Source: Thermoanaerobaculia bacterium | Lineage (GTDB): Bacteria; Acidobacteriota; Thermoanaerobaculia; Multivoradales; Multivoraceae | Length of the DNA: 64,000 nt | NCBI GenBank assembly: GCA_963664405.1 | Contig: OY761158.1 | Span: forward strand, 4,804,556 to 4,868,555 | Direction of reading: 5' to 3' | Shown: one piece after another, positions 28,401 through 45,198 of the stretch | Layout: each line of letters opens with the position of its first letter | How positions within the stretch are numbered: position 1 is the first letter of the stretch | Position numbers and translations under genes: made by a program | Notes under the pieces: model-generated | What the model saw: the letters and a program-made list of their open reading frames with translations, nothing else | Told to the model about the DNA's origin: nothing | Database searches by the model: none

Positions 28401-28616
28401 AGAGTGCCGACCGCTGTTCTAGAGCGAGTGGCTCGGGAATGGACCGCGTTTGGAGCCGAGGAAGTGGGTCGATTGCCACGCGAGTTCCTGCGCAATGTTG
28501 TTAACCTTCTCGACCTCTGCGAGGAGCGACAGGATGTACCTGCGGAGAGCTTCCTTCTAGAGCCTTCGACGCTGCGAGACTCTGCGTCATCGGTTCTGGC
28601 GCTTCTGCAGAAGTAA
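25416..28616 (+). CDS. Multidomain P-loop ATPase: N-terminal winged helix, TerB-like segment (tentative), three SAP motifs, C-terminal DUF2791 (BrxD-like RecA/KaiC-type) ATPase
   Basis: Walker A FKFVRGAYGAGKTFL and Walker B GLVLVVDEIE in the C-terminal ~450 aa. SAP-like LKQLCRDLSLPSSGLKKDLISSVIDYF and LTELCKKLRIAISGVKEEIVDRLINW. TerB-like AAWEDDGRVDRSEALLLAALRTELGI. Confidence 0.55.
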   Translation: MSSCETPPMTDNSQHGPSGFAGLFLAKLPIDGSALGNSTLRKELRWPESRYWEIRDDLLRQGLIQRGRGRGGSVRLSSARPPNLSEVTTIKQPGLSIVGALSTYPDAALDRLARDKVDEVSNLRFPREVLIREIATALSSLSYVAKVLAPSRPPTYACLKLLMDASELQLPVNGFRRLVLAETDALTKRADDEKALPANKSYQLYRRMLFAAWEDDGRVDRSEALLLAALRTELGIWTREHLLLEHHSDVRPIWDSPTCYEEALKLLLSTGLIVIHEDFYALPQEVGSQIRRVWGIDLEDSAYEALLLNLRGRHLRRALEAAKLPLSGSKEERAERLIQSLVPPAEVLETLHILELKQLCRDLSLPSSGLKKDLISSVIDYFDTGLHLAQITGVPDPRPVLPAEPEPRVLNHSQLTLLLEQLRGDLLYDLLAAHRLRRSGPKAERIERLVRCPLSERTLLSDLRRTDLTELCKKLRIAISGVKEEIVDRLINWASFMSQQPVVALAERGGETEAATPAGPPANHVAPPSESGHRVMERSQEERAAAPAGLSEIRERFGELEDDQQVILALLREAKSLTELEIERAAHNHGLSWFLTKAHMADLLAQLRQQGKNVLRVRGTGSANVYEWSRAADDHENGLERSAARDVIDALRQGVVPQRHLDLLAVGQDEARSHLTELFEHVEKGRSEFKFVRGAYGAGKTFLCSWLCERAFEHDFAISAVRIGPDQPLSDLPVFFSCLIDGLRTPEKRDGSALADILESWLLAVHQRTARLDAPAATGLEGERDLRSLVEVRIGEKLAQLADIDPGIAPALRAFYKARVEGNHDTAANALTWFRGSRLLAASALRSIGVRGQLTADEVFPRMRALLQVIAEGRLRGLVLVVDEIELVRRFPHARQREQAYETLRLLIDECGTNNLPGCLLICTGTDQLFEDERYGIKSYQALADRVENPRGTEGPASVRQPILLLDPLDSERLLEVAERVRDIHGSAYDWPAEERVPTAVLERVAREWTAFGAEEVGRLPREFLRNVVNLLDLCEERQDVPAESFLLEPSTLRDSASSVLALLQK

Positions 28617-28708: not shown

Positions 28709-30940
28709 TCACTCACGAGCGGATTGGCCAAGGAGATGGAGCAATCCAGAGCAGTCCAGTGTCTGCTCGACAAGGGCGGAAGCCCAGAGTCCCCTAGGCA
28801 AACACTTTGCGAAGGCTGAAAAGAGCGACAGCGGTTGAGATTCCTCCAACATTGCCATCAGAGCCGCCTGTGCCTCCCTGACTGGCTGTTCGCGCAGACT
28901 ACCCAGAGCATGCTTGAGCTTGGTAAGCAGGACTCCTGCCCCCTGCGGACCGTTTTTCACGTTCACCTCCTTGTACGTGGCGTGAGCGTTGCCGAGACTC
29001 AAGGCAGTCAAGTATCGAGCGAGTGTTCGATTGATTCGATCTCCCCCGTAAGTCAGGATCGATGCGGAACCTGCGGAGGTCGCGTCGATGACGATCTCTC
29101 CCGGTCGCCATCGACGGTCCGATGCCTCTAGCTGGAGGGAACAGAGCGCTTTTCTGCCCTTCTCAGAGACAAAGGCAGGGACGTCTCCGCCATGGAGCAT
29201 CCGGCCTACCGCCTGGGCGGTTTCCAGCGGTACACCTGGACCCCCGAAACTGTGCCAAGCCGGTGCGGCTCCGTCACTCGAAGGTCGAGCCCGCACCACG
29301 TGCGCCTTGGCATCTACACCGTCGGCGCGCCACAGCTTTCCACCGAGGACGAAGTGGAAGGGCACCTCAAGAGCTTCAACGAATCCGGCGTCAAGAGTGC
29401 CAACAGCTTCCCTACCGTTGTGGACTTCATAGAGCGGAGCGCTGTCGAACACTGCAAAGAGCCGCCTCCAGTTAGCGGCCAAGAACTCGCTCTCTGCTCG
29501 ATCGCCAACCACGAGGTGCTCATCTATCGTACGAAGATACGATTCCCTCACCATATTCTCGACAAGAGCGTCGAATTCCTGGCGACTGATCCCAGAGAAG
29601 CAATACGCGGGGCCGAGAGTCTCCCACGCCAGCGAAGGTCTAACACCGAAGTGCTGTAGAGCCAGACACAGAAGTTGATGCGCCATAAGATGGAAGGCTC
29701 GCCGAGGCAACAGAAGTGCCTCTGTCTGGCCCTCTAGGCCGAGCTGAACAGCGGCGGTCAGCAGGGCGACCTCCCCGCTCGTGACACAGAATCCACGAAA
29801 GAAGTGCAGCCCTCCTTGTCGGCGACCGGTGCGGCCGATTCGCTGAAGAAAGGCCCCTGGGCTCGCCAGAACTCCCATCTGGATGACGCGATCGAGGGCG
29901 CCGATGTCAATGCCCAGCTCGAGCGTTGAAGTGCTTATGATGGCGTCGAGCCCTTTGACGGACCTTAGTTGGATCAGTTGTTCAGCTTCTTCGCGGAAGA
30001 ACCTACTGACCGACGAGTGGTGGGTTCGAATGTTGATCGGTCGCGCCGACGGCGCGAGATGGCGAGTCTTTACAAAGGCAGCGGCGAGATTCTCGGCTCT
30101 CTTCCGAGACGACACGAAAATGATCGATCGACTTCCTGGTAGAAGATCTCGAACTGCTAGAAACCGACGGAACTCGCCACGCTCCTGGCCAGGCGTCCTT
30201 TCATCGTCTGCATTCTTGTCAAAAAGACAGACTTCAACATCCCGCCTTTCCGATCCCTGAAGCCTCCCGCTGATTTGGACTCGCCTAGCGGGACGACGGT
30301 TAGCACCACTAATCCACGATGCCATGGCCTCAGGGTTTCCAATTGTTGCACTCAGCGCGATTCGCTGCGGCTTGTCGAGGCTCGGTGCGACTGCGCGCTC
30401 GACTCTCTGAAGAAGAGACAAGAGGTGCCCCCCTCGGTCTCCGGCGGCAAAGTTGTGGGCCTCATCTACGACAATGCTTTGGAGATGCACGAACAGTTGT
30501 TGCCAGTTCTCCCTGCGCAGAAGGATTGCTTCCAGAGATTCCGGGGTTGTCAGCAGCAAATCAGGTGGTTTCTGCAGAGCTGTCAGTTTCTCCCGAAAGG
30601 CGACATCGCCGTGCCACTTGAAGGCAGTGAGCCCGCAAGCAGAGGCATACAGTTCTCCGCGTCCCTCCAGGTTGTTCAGAAGGGCTCTGAGTGGTGCTAG
30701 GTATAGAATGCGGACGCTCTCTCCGGAGCCCTCAGTCGCCCTTGTCAGACATGGGAAGAGAACTGCCTCTGTCTTGCCACCCGCTGTAGGCGCTTCAACG
30801 AGACAGTCATTGCCATCAAGGATGATTGGGATCGCAGCTCGCTGGATCTCGGATAGCCCTCGCCAGGTAGTGGATTCCACCCACCGCTGAAGGCCCGGGT
30901 GCAGCGTCGCTAACACATCATTGGATGTAGGGGGGATCAC
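28709..30940 (-). CDS. Lhr-like DEAD/DEAH-box helicase (BrxHI-like), 743 aa, convergent with the DUF2791 ATPase
   Basis: LVEAPTAGGKTEA (motif I), IVVDEAHNF (II), helicase-C ISTSTLELGIDIGALDRVIQMG...QRIGRTGR, then a DEAD-associated C-terminal domain. Confidence 0.7.
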   Translation of the reverse strand: MIPPTSNDVLATLHPGLQRWVESTTWRGLSEIQRAAIPIILDGNDCLVEAPTAGGKTEAVLFPCLTRATEGSGESVRILYLAPLRALLNNLEGRGELYASACGLTAFKWHGDVAFREKLTALQKPPDLLLTTPESLEAILLRRENWQQLFVHLQSIVVDEAHNFAAGDRGGHLLSLLQRVERAVAPSLDKPQRIALSATIGNPEAMASWISGANRRPARRVQISGRLQGSERRDVEVCLFDKNADDERTPGQERGEFRRFLAVRDLLPGSRSIIFVSSRKRAENLAAAFVKTRHLAPSARPINIRTHHSSVSRFFREEAEQLIQLRSVKGLDAIISTSTLELGIDIGALDRVIQMGVLASPGAFLQRIGRTGRRQGGLHFFRGFCVTSGEVALLTAAVQLGLEGQTEALLLPRRAFHLMAHQLLCLALQHFGVRPSLAWETLGPAYCFSGISRQEFDALVENMVRESYLRTIDEHLVVGDRAESEFLAANWRRLFAVFDSAPLYEVHNGREAVGTLDAGFVEALEVPFHFVLGGKLWRADGVDAKAHVVRARPSSDGAAPAWHSFGGPGVPLETAQAVGRMLHGGDVPAFVSEKGRKALCSLQLEASDRRWRPGEIVIDATSAGSASILTYGGDRINRTLARYLTALSLGNAHATYKEVNVKNGPQGAGVLLTKLKHALGSLREQPVREAQAALMAMLEESQPLSLFSAFAKCLPRGLWASALVEQTLDCSGLLHLLGQSARE

Positions 30941-31756: not shown

Positions 31757-32178
31757 TTCACATCCTTCAGACTCAACACATACTCGAATCGATCACTCTC
31801 CTCCGAGAGAGCGTGCACGTAGAGCTCGAGCTCGTTCGAATCGAGGTGCTCTGCGAGATGCCGGACTCGTGAGATCAGGTTATCGTCTTCGTCGAAAGTG
31901 AAGGTGACGATGTTGCTTTCGGCGTTTCGCATCCAGCACCGCACCGTGAGTAGATCTTTGCTGCGGCGATTCCTCGCTACGTCGGGACTCGCCACCACGA
32001 CGGTGCTGAGCACGACATGCTCGCGGTCGATGCTGAAGCCGATGTCCTGATGACGATTCCCCACGGGGACACGGAGGAGGTCCTCATCGGGGCGCAGACG
32101 CCATTTGGGGTCCTGCTGCGCCGCTACACTTTCGAGCATGGAGCGGAGCACTGCCAGGTTCACGACGGCTCCTCCCAA
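31753..32178 (-). CDS. Hypothetical protein (141 aa) immediately downstream of the helicase-C protein
   Basis: ORF with normal composition overlapping the upstream gene end. No motif assigned. Confidence 0.3.
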   Translation of the reverse strand: MGGAVVNLAVLRSMLESVAAQQDPKWRLRPDEDLLRVPVGNRHQDIGFSIDREHVVLSTVVVASPDVARNRRSKDLLTVRCWMRNAESNIVTFTFDEDDNLISRVRHLAEHLDSNELELYVHALSEESDRFEYVLSLKDVN

Positions 32179-34067
32179 AGGTCTTGGCCGGCCTCAGCGT
32201 CCCGGGCGAGGAGGACCTCTTCGATCCAGTCGGCTTGCAGAGTGACTTCACGTACGAGCGCCTCGACTTCTTCGTACTGGCTTGTTTCGGGATGGAAGAG
32301 AAGGCTCGCCTCGACGGCAATATGGTGACTCTTGTGACGTAGATCACGGTGCGCACAAACTCGAGCGTGACCTAGAGTGCGCTGTAGGTCGTGGAGCTCG
32401 GCAACTGTTTCCTGGTCGGAAAGGTCTACGAGACCGACCGGGCTCTCGCAGCGGATGAGGGTCGCGTCGCCGAGGGCGCGAGAGCGCAGAGCGAGGCGAA
32501 AGAACTGGTGGCGAACACCTTCGGCCTTCGGGGCGATCCCGCGAGGTGCGAGCCTGCGCCCGTGGAAGAGCAGCAGGCCCTCTCTCTGATTACTTCCGAC
32601 CTCGGGCTCTCGCACGTCCAGGGCCTGGACGAGTCGCTTCCAGATCGATTCGAAGTGATTGCTGAGTGTCTCGATGGGGATCGGAGTCGCCGCCTTCTGG
32701 CCGAGCTCTCCCCGCAACCAGTCCTGCCTTACAGGGAACGCCGACTCGAGTGGGCCCTGTGGGGGGGACAACTCGGGCAGCCCCGCGATCATCTCCACGT
32801 TCTTGTCGATCGTGGACTGGTACTGAGCGTGCTCGACGTCACGTCGGTGCATCAAGCGCATAAAGCGGTCGAGCCGATCGAGCACCCTTCTCACCTGTAA
32901 GACTTCGATCGTGTCGGCCAGATGCGGGTAGAGCACCTGGATCTTCTCTTCAGGCTCGGCCGGGGTGTCACGGCCGTCGAGCTGGCGTTGAACAAGGCTG
33001 CCGATTCGATCGATGCGGCCTGTGCGTTGTTCCATTGACGAGGGCGTCCAGGCGATGCCGTAATGCACGACGTTGCGGCAGAAGGTGTGGAGATCTTCGC
33101 CTTCCTGGAGGACGTCGGTCGAGATGAGGACTAGGGGGAAGCCGGGCATCCGGAATTGGCCCACGAGCCTCTTGCTCACGCCGCCCGACATGCGGCCCAC
33201 GGGAGCCTGATGCTGGAGAGAGCGTCCGAAGATCTCGCTCAGTTCGGCGAGCCTTGCAGTCGGAACCTGCGAGAAGTTGACCGCGAGCAGGGTGTCGAAC
33301 GCTCCGGCCGCGCCGTGTAGCTCGTAGAAGGCATGGAAGCCGCGCTCCGTGCGCTGACGGTTGAGAAGCTCGACGAAAGCGCGAGCCGGCCCACCCTCCT
33401 GAGTATCGGTGGAAGGTGCCGGACGGAGTTCAAAGGAGCCAGCCTCGCGCATGGCGAGTAGGTAGAGATCGATGTAGGCCCCTCCGAGGCGTGCCATCGC
33501 GCTCAAGAGCTCACGGCGCTGTTCGCTCTCACGCAAGCGCTGTGGGAATGGGAGGTTGCGGGCATCGGGCCAGAGCATGGCTCGGAGCTCGGGCCGCTTG
33601 ACGAGCTCGGTGAAGAATGTAGTGACACCGATCTGCGAGCTCGCCTCGGGGAACCCGGGCGGCGCTTCTTCGTGTTGTCCCTTGAAGTCGGGGAAGCGTC
33701 CTCTGAGAACGACCGCGGCTTCTTCGGCTGCCAGACCCCCGGCGTTGTCGAGCAGAAAGAGTGCTGCGGCCTGGTAGCACTCAAAGACGTAGTAGCGCGG
33801 GTACCCTGTGGCTCGCCTTGTGCGGCGCCGGAAGTGTGCCCAAGCTAACTGGCTCAGCTCGGCTTCGACTGAGTGCCTGTGCCTGTTGAGTACCTCGGCG
33901 AGGCGTTGGAGTGGTAAGGCTGGGCGGCCGAGCAGTCGGGCGACGTAATCGTCTTCAAAGAGGGTGCTGTAAGCGGCGGCGATATTGCTGAGACGGTTCT
34001 TTTGGAAGGCCGCGCCGGACAATATGCCGGGCGGACCCCAGCAGTCTTCAGCTGCCAAGGGTGCCAC
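32160..34067 (-). CDS. SF2 helicase C-terminal-domain protein lacking an identifiable Walker A/DEAD N-terminal ATPase domain (likely 5'-truncated helicase)
   Basis: PLVLISTDVLQEGEDLH and QRTGRIDRIGS (motifs V/VI). No GKT/S or DExx in the first 290 aa. No coding sequence upstream of the start. Confidence 0.45.
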   Translation of the reverse strand: MAPLAAEDCWGPPGILSGAAFQKNRLSNIAAAYSTLFEDDYVARLLGRPALPLQRLAEVLNRHRHSVEAELSQLAWAHFRRRTRRATGYPRYYVFECYQAAALFLLDNAGGLAAEEAAVVLRGRFPDFKGQHEEAPPGFPEASSQIGVTTFFTELVKRPELRAMLWPDARNLPFPQRLRESEQRRELLSAMARLGGAYIDLYLLAMREAGSFELRPAPSTDTQEGGPARAFVELLNRQRTERGFHAFYELHGAAGAFDTLLAVNFSQVPTARLAELSEIFGRSLQHQAPVGRMSGGVSKRLVGQFRMPGFPLVLISTDVLQEGEDLHTFCRNVVHYGIAWTPSSMEQRTGRIDRIGSLVQRQLDGRDTPAEPEEKIQVLYPHLADTIEVLQVRRVLDRLDRFMRLMHRRDVEHAQYQSTIDKNVEMIAGLPELSPPQGPLESAFPVRQDWLRGELGQKAATPIPIETLSNHFESIWKRLVQALDVREPEVGSNQREGLLLFHGRRLAPRGIAPKAEGVRHQFFRLALRSRALGDATLIRCESPVGLVDLSDQETVAELHDLQRTLGHARVCAHRDLRHKSHHIAVEASLLFHPETSQYEEVEALVREVTLQADWIEEVLLARDAEAGQDLWEEPS

Positions 34068-34322: not shown

Positions 34323-34802
34323 GTGGGGCTTGAAGCCGCCGTCTACTGCGATTGCTTTGAACGAGGCGACCTCAAGGTCCAGCCTCGGCCAGAATGGGGG
34401 GTCTATGTTGCAGAAAACGGATCCAGAGAAACCACCGCTACGGATCTCGATCTACAAACAGCTTTCGATTGTTGGGACCGCGACCAAGCCTGCTGCCACG
34501 AGGGTGGCGTTTTTCTTGCCCACTACATCGGCAATATTGGTCTTGTTGGGGTGTTTCGTGAGCTCATCGGCGAGCATCCGAATGACTTCCCACTAATACT
34601 GGAGAAAGTCATTTACAGTGGCAGTCATTGCGGGGACTATCTGGTAGTTGGAGAGGTAGAGGCAATGCAGGCGGAGGTTGAAAGGATCGCTCACGTTCAT
34701 TCCCAAGACGAAGAAGCTGAACAGTGGCTCCGCGGTTTCGAAGCACAGATGCGTGAGCTGGTTGGATGCGCATTGCGAGTCAAGAGGCCCATAGCATTCT
34801 AG
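34323..34802 (+). CDS. Hypothetical protein (159 aa)
   Basis: ORF with balanced composition. No motif assigned. Confidence 0.25.
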   Translation: MGLEAAVYCDCFERGDLKVQPRPEWGVYVAENGSRETTATDLDLQTAFDCWDRDQACCHEGGVFLAHYIGNIGLVGVFRELIGEHPNDFPLILEKVIYSGSHCGDYLVVGEVEAMQAEVERIAHVHSQDEEAEQWLRGFEAQMRELVGCALRVKRPIAF

Positions 34803-34871
34803 AGCTCGGACAAGGTATTCCAAGACCTCCTGCCGATGGCGGTTGATCCACGCGGCATCTTCGACCCGGGG

Positions 34872-34988
34872 ACTTCACGCAAACTCGTCCCGAAACGGAC
34901 TCAGGAATCGCCTCTCGGCTGACCAGTCCGTGACCGCGAAGACCACGTCAGAGAACGCCCCTCGGAACTCGCCCTCGAGCACCGTTGA
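34872..34988. repeat. ~115-bp direct repeat, copy 1. Duplicate of the 3' end of the PARG-like gene, here abutting an ARH fragment.
   Basis: TTCACGCAAACTCGTCCCGAAACGGACTCAGGAATCGCCTC...GGAACTCGCCCTCGAGC is ~92% identical to 36926-37042. Confidence 0.6.
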
Positions 34989-34989
34989 C

Positions 34990-35160
34990 ACCCGCGACAA
35001 CGACCCTGTCGGCGCGATCGTTGGCGCTCTCGTAGGTGCGCAGCATGGCGCGAGTTCACTGCCCGACCGGTGGCTCGACGGGCTGCTGGGCCGCACCGGT
35101 GCCGACGATGACGGGCGAGTTCAGGAGTTAGTGGAGCTGGCAGTGCAGAGGTGGTGCTAA
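34990..35160 (+). pseudogene. C-terminal fragment of an ADP-ribosylglycohydrolase (ARH/DraG family)
   Basis: DPVGAIVGALVGAQHGASSLPDRWLDGL matches the ARH C-terminal DTxxAIAGALxGAxxGxxxIPxRWL motif. No N-terminal part is present. Confidence 0.5.
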
Positions 35161-35222
35161 AGACACTGGCGATCGACGTGGTGGCCAGGAGCGCGCCGCA
35201 GACGCCACCAGTCGAAATCGTA

Positions 35223-36284
35223 CTAGGGAGCGGACAAGCGGCCCAAAGCAAGCTCAATCAGGCGGTCATCGAACATCCGGAGCTTACGTTCTGCCACGCG
35301 TCGGTCCCCGGGCCACGAGGATAGCCCCTCCTTAATATCCCTCAGCTCGGGTCGCCTACCCTCGCGGCTAAGCAACCAGTCAACAGAGGCGAGCAGCTCC
35401 AAACCAAGCGGAGACTCGAATCCGTCGATCTTCTTCGCGGTTCGCTCGAGAGCTTCAAGGTAGGGCTTCGCTTCCGATCTCAGATACGCCGCTAGGCGCT
35501 CCCTCTTCGAGTCGTTGAACGCGATCAGGTCGGTCGGCCTAGCATCGGCGATCCGCAGTTGCGAATGGAGGTAGCTGCCGTCCAGGCTATCGAGGAGATG
35601 CCTGAGTCGTTCAGCGTAGGGGCCGTACCTGTTCGCGGTGAACTGCAATTCGAGAGGGTTGTTCAGGCGGCAGGCGCTGATCTCACGCTCAAGAAACCAG
35701 GCTAGTTTCTGGATCTCTAGCAGCGAGCAGTCGATTCCAAGGATCCAGTATCGGCGGACGAGCTCGGCGATGAGAGCTCGCGCAGGCGTCAATTTCTCAG
35801 CACCCGCCCTCTTGGCTACGTTCTGGTACTCAAGGGTTGGTTCGTAGATCCGTACTTCGACATCAGGAAGATCGGCCAGGGTCCGCTCGATGAGCGGTCG
35901 AACAGTCGACCATGCCAGCCCTCCGTTGCCGCAACCCAACGGCGGAATGGCGATGGATTGGATCGTATTCTCGTTTACGACGGACTTTAGGTCCTCGAGG
36001 CCGGCCTCGATCCACTCGATCCGGGTCGCGGTTCGCCAATGCTGCTTTGTAGGGAGGTTGATGATCCATCGTGGCCCTATCAGCTCGGCACGTTCGGTAA
36101 CGAATACTCGGCCGACCTCGACCTCCCCTCGCTTGCAGGCAGCTGCGTAGGCGCGGAAGTTCTCGGGGAAGGCTTCTTTGAACATCAAGGCAATTCCCTT
36201 CCCCATGACACCGACTGTGTTGACCGGGTTGACCAGAGCCTCTACGTCGGCTTCGAGAAGATTGCCCTTTGTATAGTGGAGCAT
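35223..36284 (-). CDS. darG: DarG antitoxin (N-terminal macrodomain, C-terminal DarT-binding domain), 353 aa
   Basis: [32 protein letters not shown] macrodomain. Length matches DarG. TGATG overlap with the darT remnant upstream. Confidence 0.7.
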
Positions 36285-36684
36285 CAGAAGTACCAGCCAG
36301 GCTGAACGACGGTCTTGAGCTCTAGACCGCGCTTGGAGGCCTCAGCGTCGATCGCGGTCTTCACCTCAGAAGTGTAGCAAGCCAGGCCCTCGAGGGCCGC
36401 GAAGGGTACGTGCCTATGCGCAAGTGCTTCGGCCTGGTACCCCTCGGAGGGACCGGCACCTCTCGATGACTCCGCTTCTCTATGAGCTCGGCACTTCCTA
36501 TGGCGGCGAAGTTCGCGTCCTTGATGTCCGATCGACTGCAGTGGAGCCCATTCTTCAAGATCCAGGGCACGTTGGATCTATGGGTGATCCGGAAAATGAG
36601 CGCCTTGCCGGCGGTGAGGGTTTCGTTGAGGGGCCTCGCCATAGCTGCCGATAGGAGTTTAGCTCCCGGAGTGAGCCGGCGCAC
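36283..36684 (-). pseudogene. darT: DarT (DUF4433 DNA ADP-ribosyltransferase toxin), frameshifted and ~90 aa too short
   Basis: N-terminal frame LIFRITHRSNVPWILKNGLHCSRSDI (DUF4433 start). After VPVPP the frame is lost. The C-terminal frame ends ...VVQPGWYF* overlapping the darG start. Total span is only ~120-134 codons. Confidence 0.55.
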
Positions 36685-36925
36685 GTGCCCCTGCTCAGAA
36701 CAGATCCGGCTGAGCGCTCAACCGGTTGGAACACTGGATCTCATGAGCCTGCGCGACTTGGACGGCTGCCTCAACGAAGAGGTTGCCACCTTACGGGGAA
36801 CCCTTCCCATGGGAACTCAGTCCTTCTCTACCTCCGGCCCTATCACCCGGTAACCTCGGTTGCGAGGCGCTCTGCCAATTTCAATTCCCTTCTCACGAGG
36901 CGCCCGGCCTCCTAGCGCGGCGGGA

Positions 36926-37042
36926 ACTTCACCCAAACTCGTCCCGAAACGGACCCAGGAATCGCCTCCCGAGCGACCAGTCCGTGACCGCGAAGACCAC
37001 GTCGGAGAACGCCCCCTGGAACTCGCCCTCGAGCGCCCTTCG
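36926..37042. repeat. ~115-bp direct repeat, copy 2 (authentic 3' end of the PARG-like gene)
   Basis: See copy 1. Confidence 0.6.
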
Positions 37043-37606
37043 GAAGTCGGCGGCGCACCGTCTCGCATCGTTCCCGAACGCTCCACAGCCCCAGGCCCCC
37101 AGGACGAGAGCCGAGTGCTCGTATGCCCTCGCGACGGCCAGCACTCGATGGATACGCCGCTCCAGGAGATCTCCGGCTTCGGGCTGACCGATGGCGGGAG
37201 CGTAGGGCGCCGCGCAGGTCAGGAAGCTGAGAAGCCAGGGTTGCTCGAGCTCTTCTCCGGCGTCGAGACGAAAGACGGGGACGTGAGGGGAGTAGATGGC
37301 CCAGTCGGTAGAGTCCGGCCGCGCGCGCGCAGCGTGTTCGGGATACATCGGATCGCCGACCAGAGTCGTGTGCAGTGCGCTCGACCGGCACAGCACCTCC
37401 TCCTGCGCCCGCGCACCGCTGAGGAAGCCGCCGCCAGGTGAGATGCCGTTGGCAAAGTTCAGGGCGAGAGGCTGGTGACCGCTCTCGACGAGTCGACGTG
37501 ATGCTCCCAGTGTCGTCTCGTTGACGACCTGAACCCGGGTTTCCGGAAGCACGGACTTCTCGAGCTGCGGAAGAGGCGCGTCCGGCGGGATGCTGACCTT
37601 TGTCAA
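36929..37606 (-). CDS. Bacterial-type poly(ADP-ribose) glycohydrolase-like macrodomain protein (DUF2263/TIGR02452-like)
   Basis: LALNFANGISPGGGFLSGARAQEEVLCRSSAL matches the microbial PARG GGG-X6-8-QEE signature. Confidence 0.55.
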   Translation of the reverse strand: MTKVSIPPDAPLPQLEKSVLPETRVQVVNETTLGASRRLVESGHQPLALNFANGISPGGGFLSGARAQEEVLCRSSALHTTLVGDPMYPEHAARARPDSTDWAIYSPHVPVFRLDAGEELEQPWLLSFLTCAAPYAPAIGQPEAGDLLERRIHRVLAVARAYEHSALVLGAWGCGAFGNDARRCAADFRRALEGEFQGAFSDVVFAVTDWSLGRRFLGPFRDEFG

Positions 37607-37813
37607 CGGCGCTTAAGAAGCGCGCGATCCCGGCTTTCTGACCGCGTTTCCTGCTGAGAGTCTCTTCAGCATCATCGTCGCGCGCGAGCGCGCGAGCAGC
37701 GTGGCAGGTGGGAGTATGGGGAGACCGGCGGGGGCGACTCCAAGCAAGGTGACCGCCCACCGCCGGAAGGCCTGGGGTATGACGCCCCAGAAGAGGGAGT
37801 ATTCCGCCTGCGG

Positions 37814-38100
37814 GTGGCGAAGTCCAGGCCGAAGGAGGCCTGGGCCGTGCGCCGCCGTCCCGATTGTCGCCGTTTCGTTTGCGATCGTTGCCGGCAAGCT
37901 GTCTACATTTGCTCTTGGTGCGATCGCGGCCATCGTTATTGCACGCCGGAGTGCCGGGATGAGGCTCGGCGCCACAGCCTTCGCGGGGCCGGGCGTCGCT
38001 ATCAGCAGACGCCGCGAGGGCGCCGCTTGCATGCTCGTCGTCAGCAGGCCTATCGAGATCGCAAGCAGCAAGGCTCAAAGAAAGTGACGCATCACAGTTG
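37814..38100 (+). CDS. Possible small Cys/Arg-rich Zn-binding protein upstream of istA (very tentative)
   Basis: CDRCRQAVYICSWCDRGHRYCTPECRDEARRHSLRGAGRRYQQTPRGRRLHARRQQAYRDRKQQ. Regular Cys spacing, but could be a GC-rich artefact. Confidence 0.2.
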
Positions 38101-38177
38101 CCGCACCGGGGGCTGCCCTGCGACGGTGGCGTCATGGCCCACCGCGCCGCTTCCGTTGTTTTTGCAAGGCTTGTCCG

Positions 38178-39794
38178 TTGGAGGTCGGAACGAGGAGCTT
38201 CTCTGCAGGCTGTGCCGCCATCCTTGCGAGCCGATTGTCCGCCACGACTTCTTGCGATCGCGCCGAGTACGCCCGGTGCGCAGGCGGGCGCGGGATGATC
38301 TCTCCCGAGCTCGCCGCCGAGATCCGCCGTCTCTATGAGTCGGAGGGCTGGCGGCGCAACACGATCGCCCGCCATCTGGGAATCCATCACTCGACGGTCA
38401 CTCGAGTCCTTCGACGCGAAGGGCTGAGCCGGCCTCGATCGCCGCGACGAGCGTCCATGGTCGATCGCTTCGTCCCCTTCATCCAGGAAGTCTTTGAGCG
38501 CTACCCGGAGCTGCCGGCGAGCGTGCTCTACGAGATGGTCAAGAAGCGTGACTATCCCGGTGGGGAGGATCACTTCCGCCACTGCATTGCCGAGCTCGGC
38601 CTGCGCCCCCGCAAGGCGCCTGAGGCTTTCTTTGTGCTCCGTACGCTTGCCGGCGAACAGGCCCAGGTGGACTGGGCTCACTTCGGCACCCGAAAGGTCG
38701 ATGGCGGAGAGCGCCGTCTCTACGCCTTCGTCATGGTGCTGAGCTACTCGCGAGCTCTCTTTCTGCACTTCTTCTACGACGCTCGTCTGCCGAGCTTCCT
38801 GACCGGGCATGTCCTCGCCTTCTCCTTCTTTGAGGGTCTGGCCAAGATCCACCTCTACGACAATCTGCGCAGCGCTGTGCTCGAGCGGCGCCGCAGCGCC
38901 ATTCGCTTTCATCCACGGCTTCTCGAGCTCGCCGACTTCTACGGCTTTGATCCAAGGCCCGTTGCTCCCAGACGAGGAAATGAAAAAGGTCGCGTCGAAC
39001 GAGCCATTCGTTTTGTCAGAACTTCCTTCTTTCCGCTGCGTCGCACCTGGGACAGAGAAGCGCTGAACCGGGACGCTCTGGAGTGGTGTCGCGACCGAGC
39101 GATGAAGCGCCCGTGGCCCCAGGACCGGCGTCGCACCGTCGAGCAGGCCTATCTCGAGGAGCGCTCTCATCTCGTGAGCCTTCCGGCGCAGCCTTTCCCC
39201 TGCCACGAATGGGTCGAGCGGATCACGCGGCGCACTCCTTACCTGAGCTTCGATGCGAATCGCTACTCGATCCCGCATGATCGCATCGCCCGCTCGCTAC
39301 AGATCGCCGCAGACCCGGAGCGTGTGCGCATCTTCGATCGCGAGCAGCTCATCGCCGAGCACACAAGGTCCTGGGACAAGGGCCAGATCATCGAAGACCC
39401 CCGTCACCTAGAAGAGCTGGAACGACAGAAACGCGAGGCACGTACACAGCGCGGCCAGGACTACCTGCTGCGTACGGTGCCCCAGGCCGAAGAGCTCCTG
39501 CGGGAGCTGGCCCGACGGCAGAGACGACTCTCGAGTGCCGTCGCCAGACTCCTCGAGCTCCTTGCCGAGAGTGGACCCAGGGAGCTTGCAGTGGCGATCG
39601 ACGAGGCCCTCGAAAAAGGATCCCCGCATCCCGAAGCGGTGCGACTCATCCTCGATCGTCGGCGCCACGAGCGGGGACTCCTACCCGCGCTGCCTGTCCA
39701 GCTCCCCGACGATCCCAGGATCCGGGAGCTCACGGTCACTCCCCATGCACTGGCCGACTACGACAACCCCAACGACGAGGAGGACGACGAATGA
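38178..39794 (+). CDS. istA: IS21-family transposase IstA (intact). Likely true start ~38295 (MISPELAAEIRRLY).
   Basis: HTH IARHLGIHHSTVTRVL. DDE region VDWAHFG...YAFVMVLSYSRALF...HLYDN. Confidence 0.8.
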   Translation: MEVGTRSFSAGCAAILASRLSATTSCDRAEYARCAGGRGMISPELAAEIRRLYESEGWRRNTIARHLGIHHSTVTRVLRREGLSRPRSPRRASMVDRFVPFIQEVFERYPELPASVLYEMVKKRDYPGGEDHFRHCIAELGLRPRKAPEAFFVLRTLAGEQAQVDWAHFGTRKVDGGERRLYAFVMVLSYSRALFLHFFYDARLPSFLTGHVLAFSFFEGLAKIHLYDNLRSAVLERRRSAIRFHPRLLELADFYGFDPRPVAPRRGNEKGRVERAIRFVRTSFFPLRRTWDREALNRDALEWCRDRAMKRPWPQDRRRTVEQAYLEERSHLVSLPAQPFPCHEWVERITRRTPYLSFDANRYSIPHDRIARSLQIAADPERVRIFDREQLIAEHTRSWDKGQIIEDPRHLEELERQKREARTQRGQDYLLRTVPQAEELLRELARRQRRLSSAVARLLELLAESGPRELAVAIDEALEKGSPHPEAVRLILDRRRHERGLLPALPVQLPDDPRIRELTVTPHALADYDNPNDEEDDE

Positions 39795-40564
39795 ACAACA
39801 CCGACCAAGAGCGTGCCACAGCCCTGAAACTCCATGGCCTCCTAGCCCACTGGGATGAGGTCGCCAACCAACCCTGGCTCCCCGACCTGCTCGACTGGGA
39901 AGAGCAGGAGCGAGCCCGTCGCGGACTGGAGCGACGCCTGGGTCGGGCCCGGCTCGGCACCTTCAAGCCGCTGGCCGACTTCGACTGGAATTGGCCCAAG
40001 AAGATCGACCGCGAGCAGATCGAAGATCTCTTTCGGCTCGAGTGGCTCGCCCGAGGGCACAACGCTGTCTTGATAGGGCCAAACGGCATCGGCAAGACGC
40101 TCATTGCCAAGAATCTCGCCCATCAAGCCGTACTACGTGGAGCCACCGCCCGATTCCTCACCGCCTCGGAGCTGCTCAACACCCTCGCCGAACAAGACTC
40201 CTCGACCAGCCTTCAGCGCAAGCTCGCGCTCTTTGCGCGCCCATCCCTGCTCTGCATTGACGAGCTCGGATATCTGTCCTACGACACGCGCCACGCCGAT
40301 CTACTTTTCGAGGTCGTTTCCCGCAGGTACGAAAATAAGTCCCTTCTCATCACCACAAACAAGTCCTTTGGAGAATGGGGAGAGGTCTTCCCCAACGCTA
40401 CTACCGTCGTCACCATCGTCGATCGCCTCGTCCATCGCTGCGAGCTCGTCAACATCGAGGGCGATTCCTATCGGCTCAAGGAGTCCAAGGAGCACGCCAA
40501 GAAGCGCGCTTCGGCCCGCCGAAGCGGCACTCGCCCTCGACGGCGCAGTGCGAAGACCTCGTGA
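39791..40564 (+). CDS. istB: IS21-family helper ATPase IstB
   Basis: NAVLIGPNGIGKTLIAKNLA Walker A. LLCIDELGY Walker B. 4-nt overlap with istA. Confidence 0.85.
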   Translation: MNNTDQERATALKLHGLLAHWDEVANQPWLPDLLDWEEQERARRGLERRLGRARLGTFKPLADFDWNWPKKIDREQIEDLFRLEWLARGHNAVLIGPNGIGKTLIAKNLAHQAVLRGATARFLTASELLNTLAEQDSSTSLQRKLALFARPSLLCIDELGYLSYDTRHADLLFEVVSRRYENKSLLITTNKSFGEWGEVFPNATTVVTIVDRLVHRCELVNIEGDSYRLKESKEHAKKRASARRSGTRPRRRSAKTS

Positions 40565-40914
40565 TCCGACAGGAGTATCGCGCCGAGCTCATCCGCCTCT
40601 ACCTCGACGCTCCTAAAACCCCGCCTAGACCTCGGCGCCGAGACTGGGCCATCGCCGACAAGCTCTATCAAGCCAACGTCCCCCTCGAAGAGCTTGCCCA
40701 TGCCATTCGACTCGCCACCTTGCGACGGCGCCTCAGCACCGATCCGCTGCCGCAGATTCACTCACTTGCCTACTACCGCTCCGTACATCGAGCCCTGACC
40801 AACGACGAGCTCGACCCTCAATACGTCCGCTACATCCTCCTTCGGCACCGGTCCCTTCTCGAGGAGGATGAAACCAAAAGCGCCACTACACAGCCGGAAT
40901 CCCGCACTTTATGA
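40560..40914 (+). CDS. Hypothetical ~118-aa ORF with GTG start overlapping the istB stop (possible IS passenger gene)
   Basis: Frame reads VIRQEYRAELIRLYLDAPKTPPRPRRRDWAIADKLYQANVPLEELAHAIRLATLRRRL... Non-repetitive. GTGA overlap with istB. Confidence 0.3.
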
Positions 40915-41136
40915 CCGCCGATAACAACCTTGGATGCCCGCGCGACGTCGACCTGATGACTCCAGTCCACGCGCTTGCCCGTCGGGGAGATGTAGCTCCC
41001 TCGGGAGACCGCCTCGACGGCGGATCTGCCGAGGGCGGCGGCCGTGTCGCGGGGGATGTCCAGTTCCCGCCGGCAAGCGTCGGCCATCGTGTCCGAGTCG
41101 GAACAGGGGAGTATCTTCAGCAACGGCAGTTCCCTC

Positions 41137-41562
41137 TCATCTGCCAAGCCAACTCTCCAAAGCCGCGAGCTGACCTGGTAGCGGAGCGATCCGTGCTCCC
41201 AAGGAGCGCAGCTTCGCCACCGCATCCTGCGCCGCGAGCCCCTCGCGGCGCGCCAGGTACGCAGCTAGCACCACCCCCGTTCGCTCTCGGCCCGCCCGAC
41301 AGTGGACGTACATCCCGTCGATCCGATCGTGGTGTCTCGACAGCACCTGCCAAGACCGATCGAGAGTCTCCGGGCTTGGTGCATTCATATCCACGATCGG
41401 TAGGCTGACGCGCTCGATGCCGCACCACCGAGTCGCCGCGACCGCCTCACGTCCGTAGCGTCCGGTGCTATTCCGAACAACGTACGGCTTGTAGAGGTGC
41501 GACCCACTTCGAAGCGCTGGATCTCGTTTGCCCAAGTATCTGCGAAGTGCCTGTTGCGTCAA
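41137..41562 (-). CDS. Dual-specificity/Tyr protein phosphatase-like protein (CX5R motif)
   Basis: VHCRAGRERTGVVLAAYL contains HC-X5-R. 4-nt overlap with the upstream gene. Confidence 0.5.
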   Translation of the reverse strand: MTQQALRRYLGKRDPALRSGSHLYKPYVVRNSTGRYGREAVAATRWCGIERVSLPIVDMNAPSPETLDRSWQVLSRHHDRIDGMYVHCRAGRERTGVVLAAYLARREGLAAQDAVAKLRSLGARIAPLPGQLAALESWLGR

Positions 41563-42359
41563 TCAAGTGGCAGCGAAGTCTGTTGCTGCCTCGGCGGCCA
41601 AAACGTGCCGAGCACGAGCCATGTGTTGTGCGGGAAGTAGGTGCCGACGAAGAACCTGGTGTCTCTGCCTGGGGCGCATATCTCGTCCAAGAACTTCTTC
41701 TTCACTGATTCAGCAGCCGCCTCGTCGTTTCCAAGTCGCTCCCTCTCCTTGAGGAACAGAACCCCCAGTTCCCAATCCTCGTTGAGCATCTCGTGAGGCT
41801 TTGGACTGTCTTCGCACTCGAACACGTATTTGAACTTGAATGGAATCTTCGCGAGAGGCTTGGGTGGCGGTCCGAAGAGACGGGTCTGGGAGTAGATCTT
41901 CTGCCACTCGGGCTTCCACTCCGGATCAGCAGGCTCCACTTTCAGGTCGACTACGCGCGAGGGACGCACCACTCCAAGTGACGTTTGATCTTGCTCGTAG
42001 AGGGCTCGCAGTTCGAGTATCGTTCGGTGCGGCAGTGCGTCGATGATGGCCCGTCGGCTTGCCCAAGCGTTTTCGGTGCCTAGCGGCGGTGCGACGACTT
42101 CGATCGAATCAAGCAGAGGTCGACGACTCTCTCGACGATGGTCGTTGCCGGCTCCGCTGAGCTCGAGGTCGACATCGATCCACTGGTACTTCCGAAACCG
42201 CTGATCCGGTGGTCGGTATCGGTAGTCAATCGGATAAAGCCTTACCCAGTCGAGGGCCTCGGTCACGCCTGCCGTACAGACGACCTCATCGTATCTGGCT
42301 GAAGGGTGCGGGTAGGTCATGACCGTGATCAGTACGCGGAGTCGTTCGATGTCACCCAT
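41559..42359 (-). CDS. Hypothetical protein (266 aa), middle gene of a translationally coupled trio
   Basis: Overlaps both neighbours by 4-8 nt. No motif assigned. Confidence 0.45.
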   Translation of the reverse strand: MGDIERLRVLITVMTYPHPSARYDEVVCTAGVTEALDWVRLYPIDYRYRPPDQRFRKYQWIDVDLELSGAGNDHRRESRRPLLDSIEVVAPPLGTENAWASRRAIIDALPHRTILELRALYEQDQTSLGVVRPSRVVDLKVEPADPEWKPEWQKIYSQTRLFGPPPKPLAKIPFKFKYVFECEDSPKPHEMLNEDWELGVLFLKERERLGNDEAAAESVKKKFLDEICAPGRDTRFFVGTYFPHNTWLVLGTFWPPRQQQTSLPLD

Positions 42360-43239
42360 CGATTGTCAACTCAGGCTGGCCTTGGAGCCGCAGGTCGAGC
42401 ATGGGCATCTGCAGCCGGCTGGCCATCTTCGCCGCAAGTCGATGCCGATGGCAGTGTGCAGGTAGCCTCTCTGAGCAGAGGAGAACAGAGGCACTGCTGG
42501 TCATCAGCTCCTCGAGAGAGCTTAGTTGCCTGGAGGCCTTGGCTAGGACGTCGGTCTCATACCGCTCGAAGAGGCGAGGCAGATCCTCAATTCGGAGATC
42601 TCTTCGCCATTCTCCGGGGATGCCAAGCGTAGGAAAGTGCTCATACCGTAGGCCCAGGTTCTCGCAGAGGCGGCTGAGCGTGCTGCGATGAAAACCGTAG
42701 CGTCTAGAGATCGGATTGTGTCGCGTGTCGATGAGAGTCTGGATGCCGTTTCGAAGGAGCAGATTCAGCAGGCCGTCGACAGGGAGACCTTCATAGCCAA
42801 CGGTATAGATCGCAGGCGCGGCCGTAGGCCGAAGCATCCGTCGGCGCCTTCGGTCTCGAGCATTCACCGTGTACCACGGATAACGCTTGTAGATACTGGC
42901 GATCAGTTCGTCCGTAGAACGGTTCCCAAGCTCCTCCACGAAGGCCCGGATCGCCTTAGCATGACCGGGCGTTGGGCGAGGTCGAGCTCGTTGGCCGTAA
43001 GGAGTCAGCCGCAGTCGATCGCTTTGGGTCTTGACGATACCTTTCGATTCGAGCTTGCTGAGCTCGTGGTAGAGAACGAAAGAGAAGGGCCCGAATCTGT
43101 AAGGTACGAAGTCGTAGAAGCGATCCTCGAATCCCAGATCATGTCTCAAGAGGAACACAGACTTCACAAGTCGAAGAAGGTCTACTGGACCGCCGGAAGC
43201 GGCAAGTAGTTCGAGTATAAGCCTTTGTCGATTAAGCAC
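42352..43239 (-). CDS. Fusion of an N-terminal Panacea-like (DUF4065-like, tentative) domain with a C-terminal DUF488 domain
   Basis: N-terminal LLRLVKSVFLLRHDL...YDFVPYRFGPFSFVLYHELSKLESKGIV. C-terminal IYTVGYEGLPVDGLLNLLLRNGIQTLIDTRHNPISRRYGFHRSTLSRLCENLGLRY...ASVLLCSERLPAHCHRHRLA (DUF488). Confidence 0.45.
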   Translation of the reverse strand: MLNRQRLILELLAASGGPVDLLRLVKSVFLLRHDLGFEDRFYDFVPYRFGPFSFVLYHELSKLESKGIVKTQSDRLRLTPYGQRARPRPTPGHAKAIRAFVEELGNRSTDELIASIYKRYPWYTVNARDRRRRRMLRPTAAPAIYTVGYEGLPVDGLLNLLLRNGIQTLIDTRHNPISRRYGFHRSTLSRLCENLGLRYEHFPTLGIPGEWRRDLRIEDLPRLFERYETDVLAKASRQLSSLEELMTSSASVLLCSERLPAHCHRHRLAAKMASRLQMPMLDLRLQGQPELTIDG

Positions 43240-43470: not shown

Positions 43471-44301
43471 TCAATCTTCGAGCATCCGCTCATGCCCGGA
43501 AGGACACTGTCCCCGAATGCAGTCGTGAAAGCCATCTTCGAACACATCCCAGCTGATCCAGTGGTCGCCACAGTAGCTTGCCTTACATTTCGGGCAGTAG
43601 AAGGATGCCCATTCGAGATTGAGCTCGTAGATGGATTGGGCGTCCTTTCGGAGGAGCGCGTCGCGCAGTCTCTCGAACTGGTCCGACTTGATTCGGCCTC
43701 CTAGGTGGCTGGTAAAACTCACGCGCTTGATCTCTGGGCTTGCAGATGTGCCCATCAACTGAATCGTGCCGGCGGACTTGTTGCAGATCGCGCAGTTGAA
43801 CTCGGCTTCGGCGATCGGCGCTGCGTCGGCTTCGTCAGCCTGCGCTGCGGGACGCCTAATCTCCTCTACATACGCGTCGACGATGTCCACGAACTTCGAA
43901 TGACCAATCAGTAGCTCTGCCCCGCAACTTCGGAGAAGGACCAGCGGGAGGCCAACATCACCTGCCTTGCTGGCCATTGCCTCGACGAGATCGTTGTACT
44001 CCTCGAGCCAGGGGAGGAACGATTCACCCATGTGGGCCAGTCGGTCAGCCAGGTAGCTGGTCTTCGTCTCCTCCGTCTCCGACAGACGGGCCGCGACAAA
44101 GACCTCCAATTCGTTTCGACAGAAACGCTCGAAAGTTGAATCGAAGGAGTCCAGCAGGCCCTGAATGTTTGAAGTGTCGTGACCCGATGCCAATAGGTGG
44201 GCCAGCTCGGCCTTGATGAAGCCGACGTTGACACGGATCCAGACAACGTGTCGCTGCCAGCTTGCAGCGAGAGCGGAGGTGCGATTGACGGCTTCGCCCA
44301 T
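43471..44301 (-). CDS. Hypothetical protein with C-terminal Cys-rich Zn-ribbon-like region
   Basis: FNCAICNKS...FYCPKCKASYCGDHW...HDCIRGQCPSGH. 25 nt downstream of the HD gene. Confidence 0.4.
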   Translation of the reverse strand: MGEAVNRTSALAASWQRHVVWIRVNVGFIKAELAHLLASGHDTSNIQGLLDSFDSTFERFCRNELEVFVAARLSETEETKTSYLADRLAHMGESFLPWLEEYNDLVEAMASKAGDVGLPLVLLRSCGAELLIGHSKFVDIVDAYVEEIRRPAAQADEADAAPIAEAEFNCAICNKSAGTIQLMGTSASPEIKRVSFTSHLGGRIKSDQFERLRDALLRKDAQSIYELNLEWASFYCPKCKASYCGDHWISWDVFEDGFHDCIRGQCPSGHERMLED

Positions 44302-44325: not shown

Positions 44326-44922
44326 TCACGCCAGTGGTGCACCTCGAAGCTCTTCCAGCGACCGCCTCAGCTCCGCCACGAGCGATGGATGGCTCTTTCC
44401 CATTCGATCTCGATAGACCTCGTAGAGCGACTCGTAGTACCAGAGGGTCATCTTCTTCGGCTTCCCGAAGCGGCGCCAGATCTTGCCGGCGATCTGATCG
44501 TGATCGCGCCGGATGGCGCCGAGGTTGTGGACTTTGTCGGCAAGTGAGACCAGGAGGAAGTCTTTCGACCTGGCTGTTCTCAAATGTTCGATGTAGCTCG
44601 TCTTCCGCTGCTTCCACGCCGGTTTGGGGTCCTCGAAGGTGTCGGTGCAGGCCTCCACCATCCTGGCCACGCGTTTGCCGAATAGGTGCTCGATCTCTTT
44701 GAGAGTAGCTTCGCCGCCCTGGTCTTCGGGTGCGTCGTGTAGCAGGGCGGCGATCGCCTGGTCTTCGTCGCCGCCGTGCTCGAGAACGATGGCGGTGACA
44801 GCCAGAAGATGCGCGAAGTAGGGGATCTCTGTGCCCTTCCTCTTCTGGCCATGGTGCAGCCCCCTCGCGTAGGCGAGAGCCTCCGTGAATCGGGGTCCTG
44901 GATCTTTCGTCATTGCTTCCAT
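44326..44922 (-). CDS. HD-domain (p)ppGpp-hydrolase-like small alarmone hydrolase (RelA/SpoT HD family)
   Basis: ARGLHHGQKRKGTEIPYFAHLLAVTAIVLEHGGDEDQAIAALLHDAPED matches AHxGQxRKxGxPYxxHxLxVAxIL...AALLHDxxED. Start chosen at MEAMTKD. Confidence 0.6.
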   Translation of the reverse strand: MEAMTKDPGPRFTEALAYARGLHHGQKRKGTEIPYFAHLLAVTAIVLEHGGDEDQAIAALLHDAPEDQGGEATLKEIEHLFGKRVARMVEACTDTFEDPKPAWKQRKTSYIEHLRTARSKDFLLVSLADKVHNLGAIRRDHDQIAGKIWRRFGKPKKMTLWYYESLYEVYRDRMGKSHPSLVAELRRSLEELRGAPLA

Positions 44923-45198
44923 TATAGGGAGCGGCCGCGGGGACGGGCTCGTAGCCAGCTGGGCTGAAGTTTCTCGACTTTTTCTCCCAGAACACTTGAC
45001 AAGGTTTTTCGGGCCTTTCGGTCCCCACCGTGATGTCGCTTCTAGAACCGGTCGCAGGGCCACCAGCTTCTCCTGTGCGGGGCGTCCGAAGACGGGCAGA
45101 AGATTTGCCCTTTGTCGGCCCGCGTTCGGCCTCGCATGGGAGCTTCAAGTCCCTCGAAAAACAGGGGTTATGATGGTTCGATCGACCTGGAGAGAACG

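Follow-up and report, generated by a model that had tools for sequence, protein, structure and literature searches.

Results

darG is intact beside a darT gene that has lost 295 bp

We analyzed a 64-kb stretch (hereafter the window) of contig OY761158.1 from a Thermoanaerobaculia bacterium, in which PARG, DarG and ARH sequences all lie within 2.7 kb, as found by profile searches and tblastn. Coordinates are those of the window, and genes lie on its minus strand except where noted. A first-pass annotation had placed four items here, namely a decayed darT, an intact darG, a PARG-like gene and an ARH fragment. Open reading frame (ORF) listing, three-frame translation and profile searches recovered all four in the positions given. 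We consider it probable that the locus represents a dying DarT/DarG toxin-antitoxin module (DarTG2-type) in a defence island, and that the adjoining, unrelated genes were broken by separate events.

The antitoxin gene, darG (35223..36284), is an uninterrupted ORF that encodes a 353-residue protein in which an N-terminal, TARG1-like macrodomain precedes a DarT-binding C-terminal domain, as expected of a DarTG antitoxin. It scored 430.9 bits against the NCBIfam equivalog model antitoxin_DarG (NF048014, cutoff 250), and also matched the PADLOC DarG profile (5.9e-122) and Pfam Macro (2.4e-23). Residues 1–150 resemble the crystallised macrodomains of Thermus aquaticus DarG (5M31, 7e-55) and Mycobacterium tuberculosis DarG (5M3I, 1e-49), and residues 180–350 resemble the C-terminal chain of M. 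tuberculosis DarG that was crystallised together with DarT (7YK3_B, 2.5e-17). The TARG1-like catalytic Lys80 is present in the motif NLPTKQHW (core PTKQHW); a K80A substitution inactivates T. aquaticus DarG (PMC5179494). Upstream, the darT stop codon TGA overlaps the darG ATG by one base in a TGATG at 36286–36282. This bicistronic darT-darG order with overlapping stop and start is the one expected of DarTG, and it was also found at three other loci (L002, L003 and L004). The annotation of darG as intact, with a TGATG overlap, is thus confirmed. Judged from its sequence, DarG is probably still a competent ADP-ribosyl-thymidine glycohydrolase, now an orphan without its cognate toxin. The nearest genomic relatives of DarG are encoded in metagenome-assembled genomes (MAGs) of Thermoanaerobaculia (Acidobacteriota), at ≤76% identity.

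By contrast with darG, the toxin gene survives as two pieces in different frames. The 5' remnant (36442..36642) starts with an ATG at 36642 and keeps 67 native codons, after which the frame stays open until a stop codon at 36361. It matches Pfam DarT at positions 1–56 of 201 (4.6e-10) and PADLOC DarT (2e-13), and its assignment to DarT (DUF4433) is therefore not an artefact. The 3' remnant (36284..36441) retains the original frame, out of phase with the 5' remnant, and reads through YQAEALAHRHVPF to a terminal QPGWYF and the TGA at 36286–36284. A complete DarT (DUF4433/PF14487) domain with its catalytic glutamate in frame is not present.

To map the lesion, we used as reference a 1.8-kb JGI contig from a related strain (3300027997, Ga0255057_10061042, here L002) that carries a full-length darT. 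Its product covers Pfam DarT completely (positions 1–201 of 201, 1.2e-52) and scores 225 bits against NCBIfam toxin_DarT (cutoff 150). The window is identical to L002 at 157 of 158 positions over the 5' part of darT (L002 1–158), and at 1214 of 1224 positions from the 3' part of darT through darG; the 3' remnant is 99% identical to L002 454–611. Nucleotides 159–453 of L002 are absent from the window. The missing 295 bp correspond to 98 codons plus one nucleotide (3n+1), with the junction between 36442 and 36441. This single out-of-frame deletion accounts both for the two reading frames and for the ~98 missing residues, so the first-pass description of a two-frame, ~90-residue-short darT can be traced to one event at one junction. 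The missing segment is bounded in L002 by CCGAGGGGTAC and CCGAGCGGTAC, which are CCGAGnGGTAC repeats, and one copy is left in the window. Direct repeats flank the lost segment and one of them remains, the signature of a single, microhomology-mediated event. It also looks evolutionarily recent, since both flanks are 99% identical to the intact allele.

The deletion takes out LDNYISFYFTPFSPML...FTDRHAY...DPGKTER. In an alignment with Thermus DarT, the ~98 removed central residues correspond to the conserved YVPFYFxPRSPML and FTDRH segments. Furthermore, the frameshift precedes the conserved YQAE, whose QAE glutamate aligns with the catalytic position that is substituted by alanine in the Thermus DarT construct 7OMV; E160A abolishes the toxicity of T. 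aquaticus DarT (PMC5179494). Since the central residues are gone and the QAE glutamate is out of frame, darT most probably cannot give rise to an active toxin, and the gene may be regarded as dead, as was proposed in the first-pass annotation.

The order of events may be reconstructed as follows. The product of darT is normally a single-stranded DNA thymidine ADP-ribosyltransferase of ~217 residues, and one microhomology-mediated deletion between the CCGAGnGGTAC repeats would have removed 295 bp. In this scheme the toxin would have been lost first, leaving darG as an orphan antitoxin. To our knowledge, a toxin-antitoxin pair can be lost viably only if the toxin goes first. Translation of darG may also have been lowered by the deletion, because ribosomes on the darT remnant are now predicted to stop at 36361, with 77 nt still separating them from the darG ATG, and terminating ribosomes would no longer overlap that start codon.

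We also considered whether darG might be under selection as an orphan antitoxin against DarT from phages, plasmids, islands or a second genomic DarT, with the dead darT as a stable end state. The full-length darG ORF and its catalytic Lys80 are consistent with this explanation, as is the documented occurrence in phages of orphan antitoxin-like enzymes that counter DarTG1 (PMC11825919). At the protein level, DarG is 99% identical to its L002 counterpart (P0001), and the two darG alleles differ by six synonymous and four conservative non-synonymous changes, that is, mostly by synonymous ones. However, ten substitutions are too few for inferring selection, and a deletion as recent as the 99% identical flanks indicate would leave an intact darG under neutrality too. 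The overlap-based translational coupling of darG to darT also appears to be gone, and no second DarT turned up in the 64-kb window, although no search was aimed at one. Selective retention therefore seems to us a rather unlikely explanation. The persistence of DarG probably reflects the recency of the deletion and not necessarily selection, and a special function of DarG would not be needed.

Broken darT genes beside full-length darG recur in other species

A further point in favor of selective retention comes from DarG loci elsewhere, about 10% of which have kept a full-length darG next to a broken darT. We examined 80 DarG loci from different species, with 10 kb on either side (1.35 Mb in total). 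In seventy of these, darT is full-length and in one frame, and another two are interrupted by the end of their contig; in the other eight, darT is defective or missing, i.e. ~8 of 78 (~10%). The defects are of several kinds: darT is reduced to a 26-residue tail (L029), truncated at its 5' end (L046), deprived of its N-terminal motif (L038), frameshifted (L070 and L077), or changed in frame with a segment missing (L094). Two loci show an internal deletion that spares, as in the window, ~55 residues at the N-terminus together with the 3' end; these are Zooshikella harenae WH53 (L082, 5302–5499) and L100 (2656–3120). The hosts of loci with a degraded darT include, besides Z. harenae WH53, an Aegiribacteria MAG. 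Collectively, these loci suggest that toxin-first decay recurs and that the window is a further instance of a common fate. The share of broken darT genes matters wherever surveys count DarTG as an active defence.

A PARG gene is split by an IS21-family element

The gene immediately upstream had been described as PARG-like on account of a GGG...QEE signature. The family assignment stands, while the gene itself proved to be a pseudogene split by an insertion sequence (IS). The ORF at 37606..36929 scores 189.9 bits against TIGR02452 (cutoff 50) and matches PF10021 with 5.5e-31, and its catalytic loop of the form GGG-X7-QEE is GGGFLSGARAQEE, within the GGG-X6-8-QEE pattern of bacterial-type PARG. 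With a score above the curated cutoff and a loop that aligns with that of the Thermomonospora curvata PARG structure 3SIG, the protein is a true PARG-type macrodomain. However, the maximal ORF in the window has 225 residues, as against 288–295 residues in homologues, and it covers only positions 51–145 of the PF10021 profile.

This shortfall arises because an IS element splits the gene. The 3' part (36929..37600) holds codons 65–287 and the stop, including GGGFLSGARAQEE. The 5' part (40927..41123) begins with a TTG start at 41123, preceded by GAGAGGGA, and holds codons 1–64 (41123–40932) plus the duplicated target. Consistent with this division, tblastn with the homologue P0122 placed its residues 65–291 at 37600..36920 (78% identity, 2.6e-117) and its residues 1–68 at 41123..40920 (59% identity, 1.3e-18). 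We had considered loss of the PARG N-terminus through a nearby frameshift, and rejected it: the 64 codons in question are found on the other side of the IS element, at a distance of 3.3 kb.

The intervening 3,326 bp (37601..40926, plus strand) are an IS21-family insertion sequence with istA (38178–39794; rve and Mu-transpos_C_2, 1.6e-23) and istB (39791–40564; IstB_IS21, 3.6e-60), both identified by Pfam. The element has imperfect terminal inverted repeats, beginning with TGTCAACGGCG and ending with CGCCGATAACA, and is flanked by a perfect 5-bp target duplication, ACCTT, at 37596–37600 and 40927–40931. IstA, IstB, terminal inverted repeats and a short target duplication, the features that define IS21, are thus all present. 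Two further ORFs within the element had no family match: a Cys-rich one of 174 residues before istA (37814–38338, plus strand) and one of 117–179 residues after istB (40375/40561–40914, plus strand).

Removing the IS and one copy of ACCTT in silico restored a continuous PARG ORF of 287 residues with no other lesion. The reconstructed protein matches PF10021 at positions 4–145 of 146 (2.1e-36, 125.9 bits), and its residues 28–285 resemble T. curvata PARG (3SIG, 2e-49) with the catalytic loop aligned. Hence this was a stand-alone, complete TIGR02452 PARG gene until it was broken by a single, apparently recent insertion of the IS21-family element at codons 65–66. TIGR02452 homologues 75–80% identical to the window protein (P0122–P0240) occur in MAGs labelled Limnocylindrales, Gemmatimonadaceae, Blastocatellia, Binatia and Methylohalobius; such similarity across distant phyla points to unusually high conservation or frequent transfer.

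The ARH remnant and a second PARG tail meet at a recombination junction

On the far side of darG, the C-terminal fragment of an ARH/DraG-type ADP-ribosylglycohydrolase noted in the first-pass annotation is indeed present (34987..35160, plus strand), as the last 57 codons or ~15% of the gene. It corresponds to residues 310–365 of full-length ARH homologues of 369–376 residues, with 68–75% identity (tblastn, 3e-18), and to positions 262–287 of 287 in Pfam PF03747 (ADP_ribosyl_GH; 3.4e-5, 24.1 bits, just under the cutoff of 26.2). A complete ~287-position domain above the gathering score is not present, and tblastn with the 369- and 376-residue homologues found no further ARH pieces elsewhere in the window. 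Because the N-terminal ~310 residues and most of PF03747 are missing, the remnant cannot be an enzyme. The nearest homologue of the ARH tail on a long contig (L105, 3654–4722) is split into calls of 284 and 83 residues, and lies a few kilobases from BrxE- and BrxB-like genes.

Adjoining the ARH remnant is a second PARG (TIGR02452) 3' fragment (34867..34986), which had not been listed before. It comprises ~35 terminal codons with their stop and the next 8 nt, ends in LEGEFRGAFSDVVFAVTDWSAERRFLSPFRDEFA followed by the stop, and was matched by residues 253–287 of P0122 in tblastn (1.5e-11). The 120 nt at 34867–34986 form a direct repeat of 36921–37040, with 108 of 120 positions (90%) identical and a spacing of 2054. 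Beyond the stop, the two PARG tails resemble each other for only 8 nt more and continue into different flanks, which ruled out a tandem duplication of the whole PARG-darTG-ARH block as the source of the second tail.

The ARH tail and the second PARG tail are joined head to head at 34986|34987, and this is a single illegitimate-recombination junction. Two origins fit. A ~2-kb foreign segment, comprising a PARG 3' end, spacer, darT, darG and the ARH tail, may have inserted into the 3' end of a resident PARG gene, with one side anchored by PARG homology and the other joined illegitimately. Alternatively, PARG and ARH may have been divergent neighbours whose 5' halves were lost in a deletion. In the spacer between darG and ARH (window ~35177, L002 1717), identity to L002 falls abruptly from ~99% across darT-darG to ~84–88% in the ARH tail. 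We take this drop to mark a recombination breakpoint and a cassette-like exchange of darTG between diverged backgrounds.

Could any of these lesions (darT deletion, IS insertion, PARG'/ARH' junction) be a misassembly of a mixed population, or a minority variant? The window derives from a metagenome assembly (ERZ28669063), and a close strain with an intact darT (L002, JGI 3300027997) exists in a separate metagenome sample. Nevertheless, a 10/11-nt direct repeat borders the darT deletion, and the inverted repeats of the IS match and its 5-bp target duplication is perfect; such features are biological hallmarks. Moreover, the contig is 2.97 Mb long, and the same truncated 207-residue PARG product is also encoded on a second contig of 6.78 Mb. 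We consider an artefact very improbable. An exact look-up of the DarG and PARG products of the window in other assemblies returned the source contig and its duplicate only.

PARG, ARH and DarTG lack conserved linkage in independent genomes

From three ADP-ribose-removing folds around one degraded ADP-ribosyltransferase, the first-pass annotation had proposed remnants of a larger ADP-ribosylation-based conflict system. On this explanation, PARG, DarTG and ARH once formed one cooperative system, in which a single writer was accompanied by several erasers or immunity enzymes, and have decayed jointly since the writer died. Several observations are in keeping with it: three ADP-ribose-hydrolase families lie inside 2.7 kb; darG adjoins ARH on two diverged backgrounds, the ARH part of L002 being only ~84–88% identical; the ARH homologue on L105 is near BREX-type genes; and the whole neighbourhood is a defence island.

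A conserved system predicts that the PARG, ARH and DarTG families travel together in independent genomes. We tested this prediction on the 80 DarG loci by tblastn and with hidden Markov models built from more than 100 PARG and seven ARH sequences. Neither method found a PARG or ARH within 10 kb of DarG at any of the 80 loci in other species. Conversely, none of ten metagenomic ARH loci carried DarT, DarG or PARG, and neither DarTG nor ARH families were found at PARG homologues on six contigs (four distinct contexts). The PARG homologues are stand-alone, in mostly housekeeping surroundings (cation efflux/EF-P, LexA-like, DinB/RibD/DnaG and GyrA/SSB). No darG was present in two contexts checked for the proteins nearest to the ARH tail, which are themselves short split or contig-edge calls. 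An ancestral linkage of PARG, ARH and darTG surfaced in none of the ARH-tail metagenome scan, the ARH-tail protein search, the DarG genome scan and the PARG contexts. Outside the window, the darG-ARH adjacency was seen only in the near-identical strain L002, which belongs to the same lineage. Conserved co-occurrence in independent genomes, as a multi-gene PARG-DarTG-ARH system would show, was not found, and the proposal of a larger conflict system is not upheld.

The lesions themselves also argue against joint decay. The PARG gene was hit by an independent, apparently recent IS and is otherwise clean, which is not what long relaxed selection after toxin loss would produce. In addition, DarTG is self-sufficient as a two-gene system (PMC5179494). 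A single cooperative system is thus improbable in our judgment. We give equally little credence to the related possibility that DarTG in this lineage was once embedded between PARG and ARH, with the erasers backing up or broadening DarG and the orphan DarG kept against foreign DarT; if true, a multi-eraser island could provide, for example, immunity against other ADP-ribosylating toxins.

Some points nonetheless weigh against a dying DarTG module amid unrelated broken genes. A chance gathering of PARG, DarG and ARH sequences within 2.7 kb looks unlikely, and strain L002 too carries an ARH 3' end adjoining darG, so a lineage-specific functional grouping is possible. The comparative sample comprised 80 species representatives and a few metagenome contigs, its long flanks came only from relatives ≤76% identical in DarG, and the window belongs to a metagenome assembly (ENA ERZ28669063). 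We nevertheless favor the dying module, with PARG and ARH broken separately. The ADP-ribose theme is a local juxtaposition in this lineage and not a conserved multi-component machine, and what surrounds the standard DarTG module is ordinary gene decay, with three or four independent lesions (deletion, IS insertion and recombination scar).

The locus lies in a defence island

The neighbourhood is a typical defence island. On one side are genes for a BrxD/SngB-like ATPase (25416–28616, 1066 residues, 4.8e-85) and a BrxHI/SngC-like Lhr helicase (28709–30940, 743 residues, 1.3e-149), followed by a helicase-C-only SNF2-like ORF of the PDC-M27C, ZacC and DrmD type (32160–34067, minus strand, 635 residues). 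Residues 286–408 of the latter match profile positions 729–848 of 892, and the ORF may be a 5'-truncated gene. Between this helicase remnant and the second PARG tail, in a stretch of lower GC content (0.56–0.57), is a 159-residue ORF (34323–34802, plus strand) that has no Pfam, NCBIfam or PADLOC match and is not in the ENA annotation.

On the other side, directly upstream of the PARG 5' piece, are two overlapping genes of the PADLOC candidate system PDC-M19 (41559–43239, minus strand), A being a DUF488 protein (5e-73) and B a protein of 266 residues (1.6e-76). An ADP-ribosyltransferase as a partner of PARG was sought and rejected, the two genes directly upstream being this DUF488 pair. The pair is flanked by genes for a DUF8328 protein (43471–44301, minus strand), a small RelA/SpoT-type HD_4 hydrolase (44326–45063, minus strand) and a DUF222-HNH endonuclease (45112–46506, plus strand). 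Searches returned no Rfam hits and no tRNA that could mark an integration site, and promoter or terminator signals did not exceed chance.

Discussion

As a lesson for annotation, genes that appear grouped by an ADP-ribose theme can dissolve into independent lesions once each break is mapped. The locus raises no new mechanistic question. Its value is as a clean, dated case of toxin-first DarTG decay, in which both an intact allele and the precise IS excision site are in hand.

Each component can be set beside a known counterpart. The insertion sequence shares with the IS21 family the tandem istA/istB, TG..CA ends, imperfect terminal repeats and a 5-bp duplication, but is rather long (3.3 kb) and has two extra ORFs. 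The PARG gene encodes a loop, GGGFLSGARAQEE, that aligns with GGGFLSGAHAQEE of T. curvata PARG (3SIG, DUF2263/TIGR02452); unlike its counterpart, it is interrupted at codons 65–66 and is accompanied, at a distance of 2 kb, by a second 3' fragment that derives from a paralogue or allele. Of the ARH/DraG family (PF03747), the window retains 57 C-terminal residues, 68–75% identical to those of ~370-residue members, and only ~15% of the gene.

An intact antitoxin beside a disabled toxin is shared with orphan antitoxins and other cases of toxin-first decay, including the phage enzymes that act against DarTG1 (PMC11825919). The window DarG, for its part, shows no sign of an acquired role. The closest comparison is with DarTG (DarT2/DarG2) of T. 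aquaticus and M. tuberculosis (Jankevicius et al., 2016; PMC5179494). The shared features are the darT-darG order with overlapping stop and start, the DarG macrodomain with its PTKxHW lysine and the match in the C-terminal domain, and the L002 allele encodes a full DarT. The window differs in that darT lacks 295 bp and is frameshifted, which would leave no functional pair, and in its Thermoanaerobaculia-like host. All of the parts are of known kinds (DarTG2, bacterial PARG, ARH and IS21), to which the locus adds an ordinary example.

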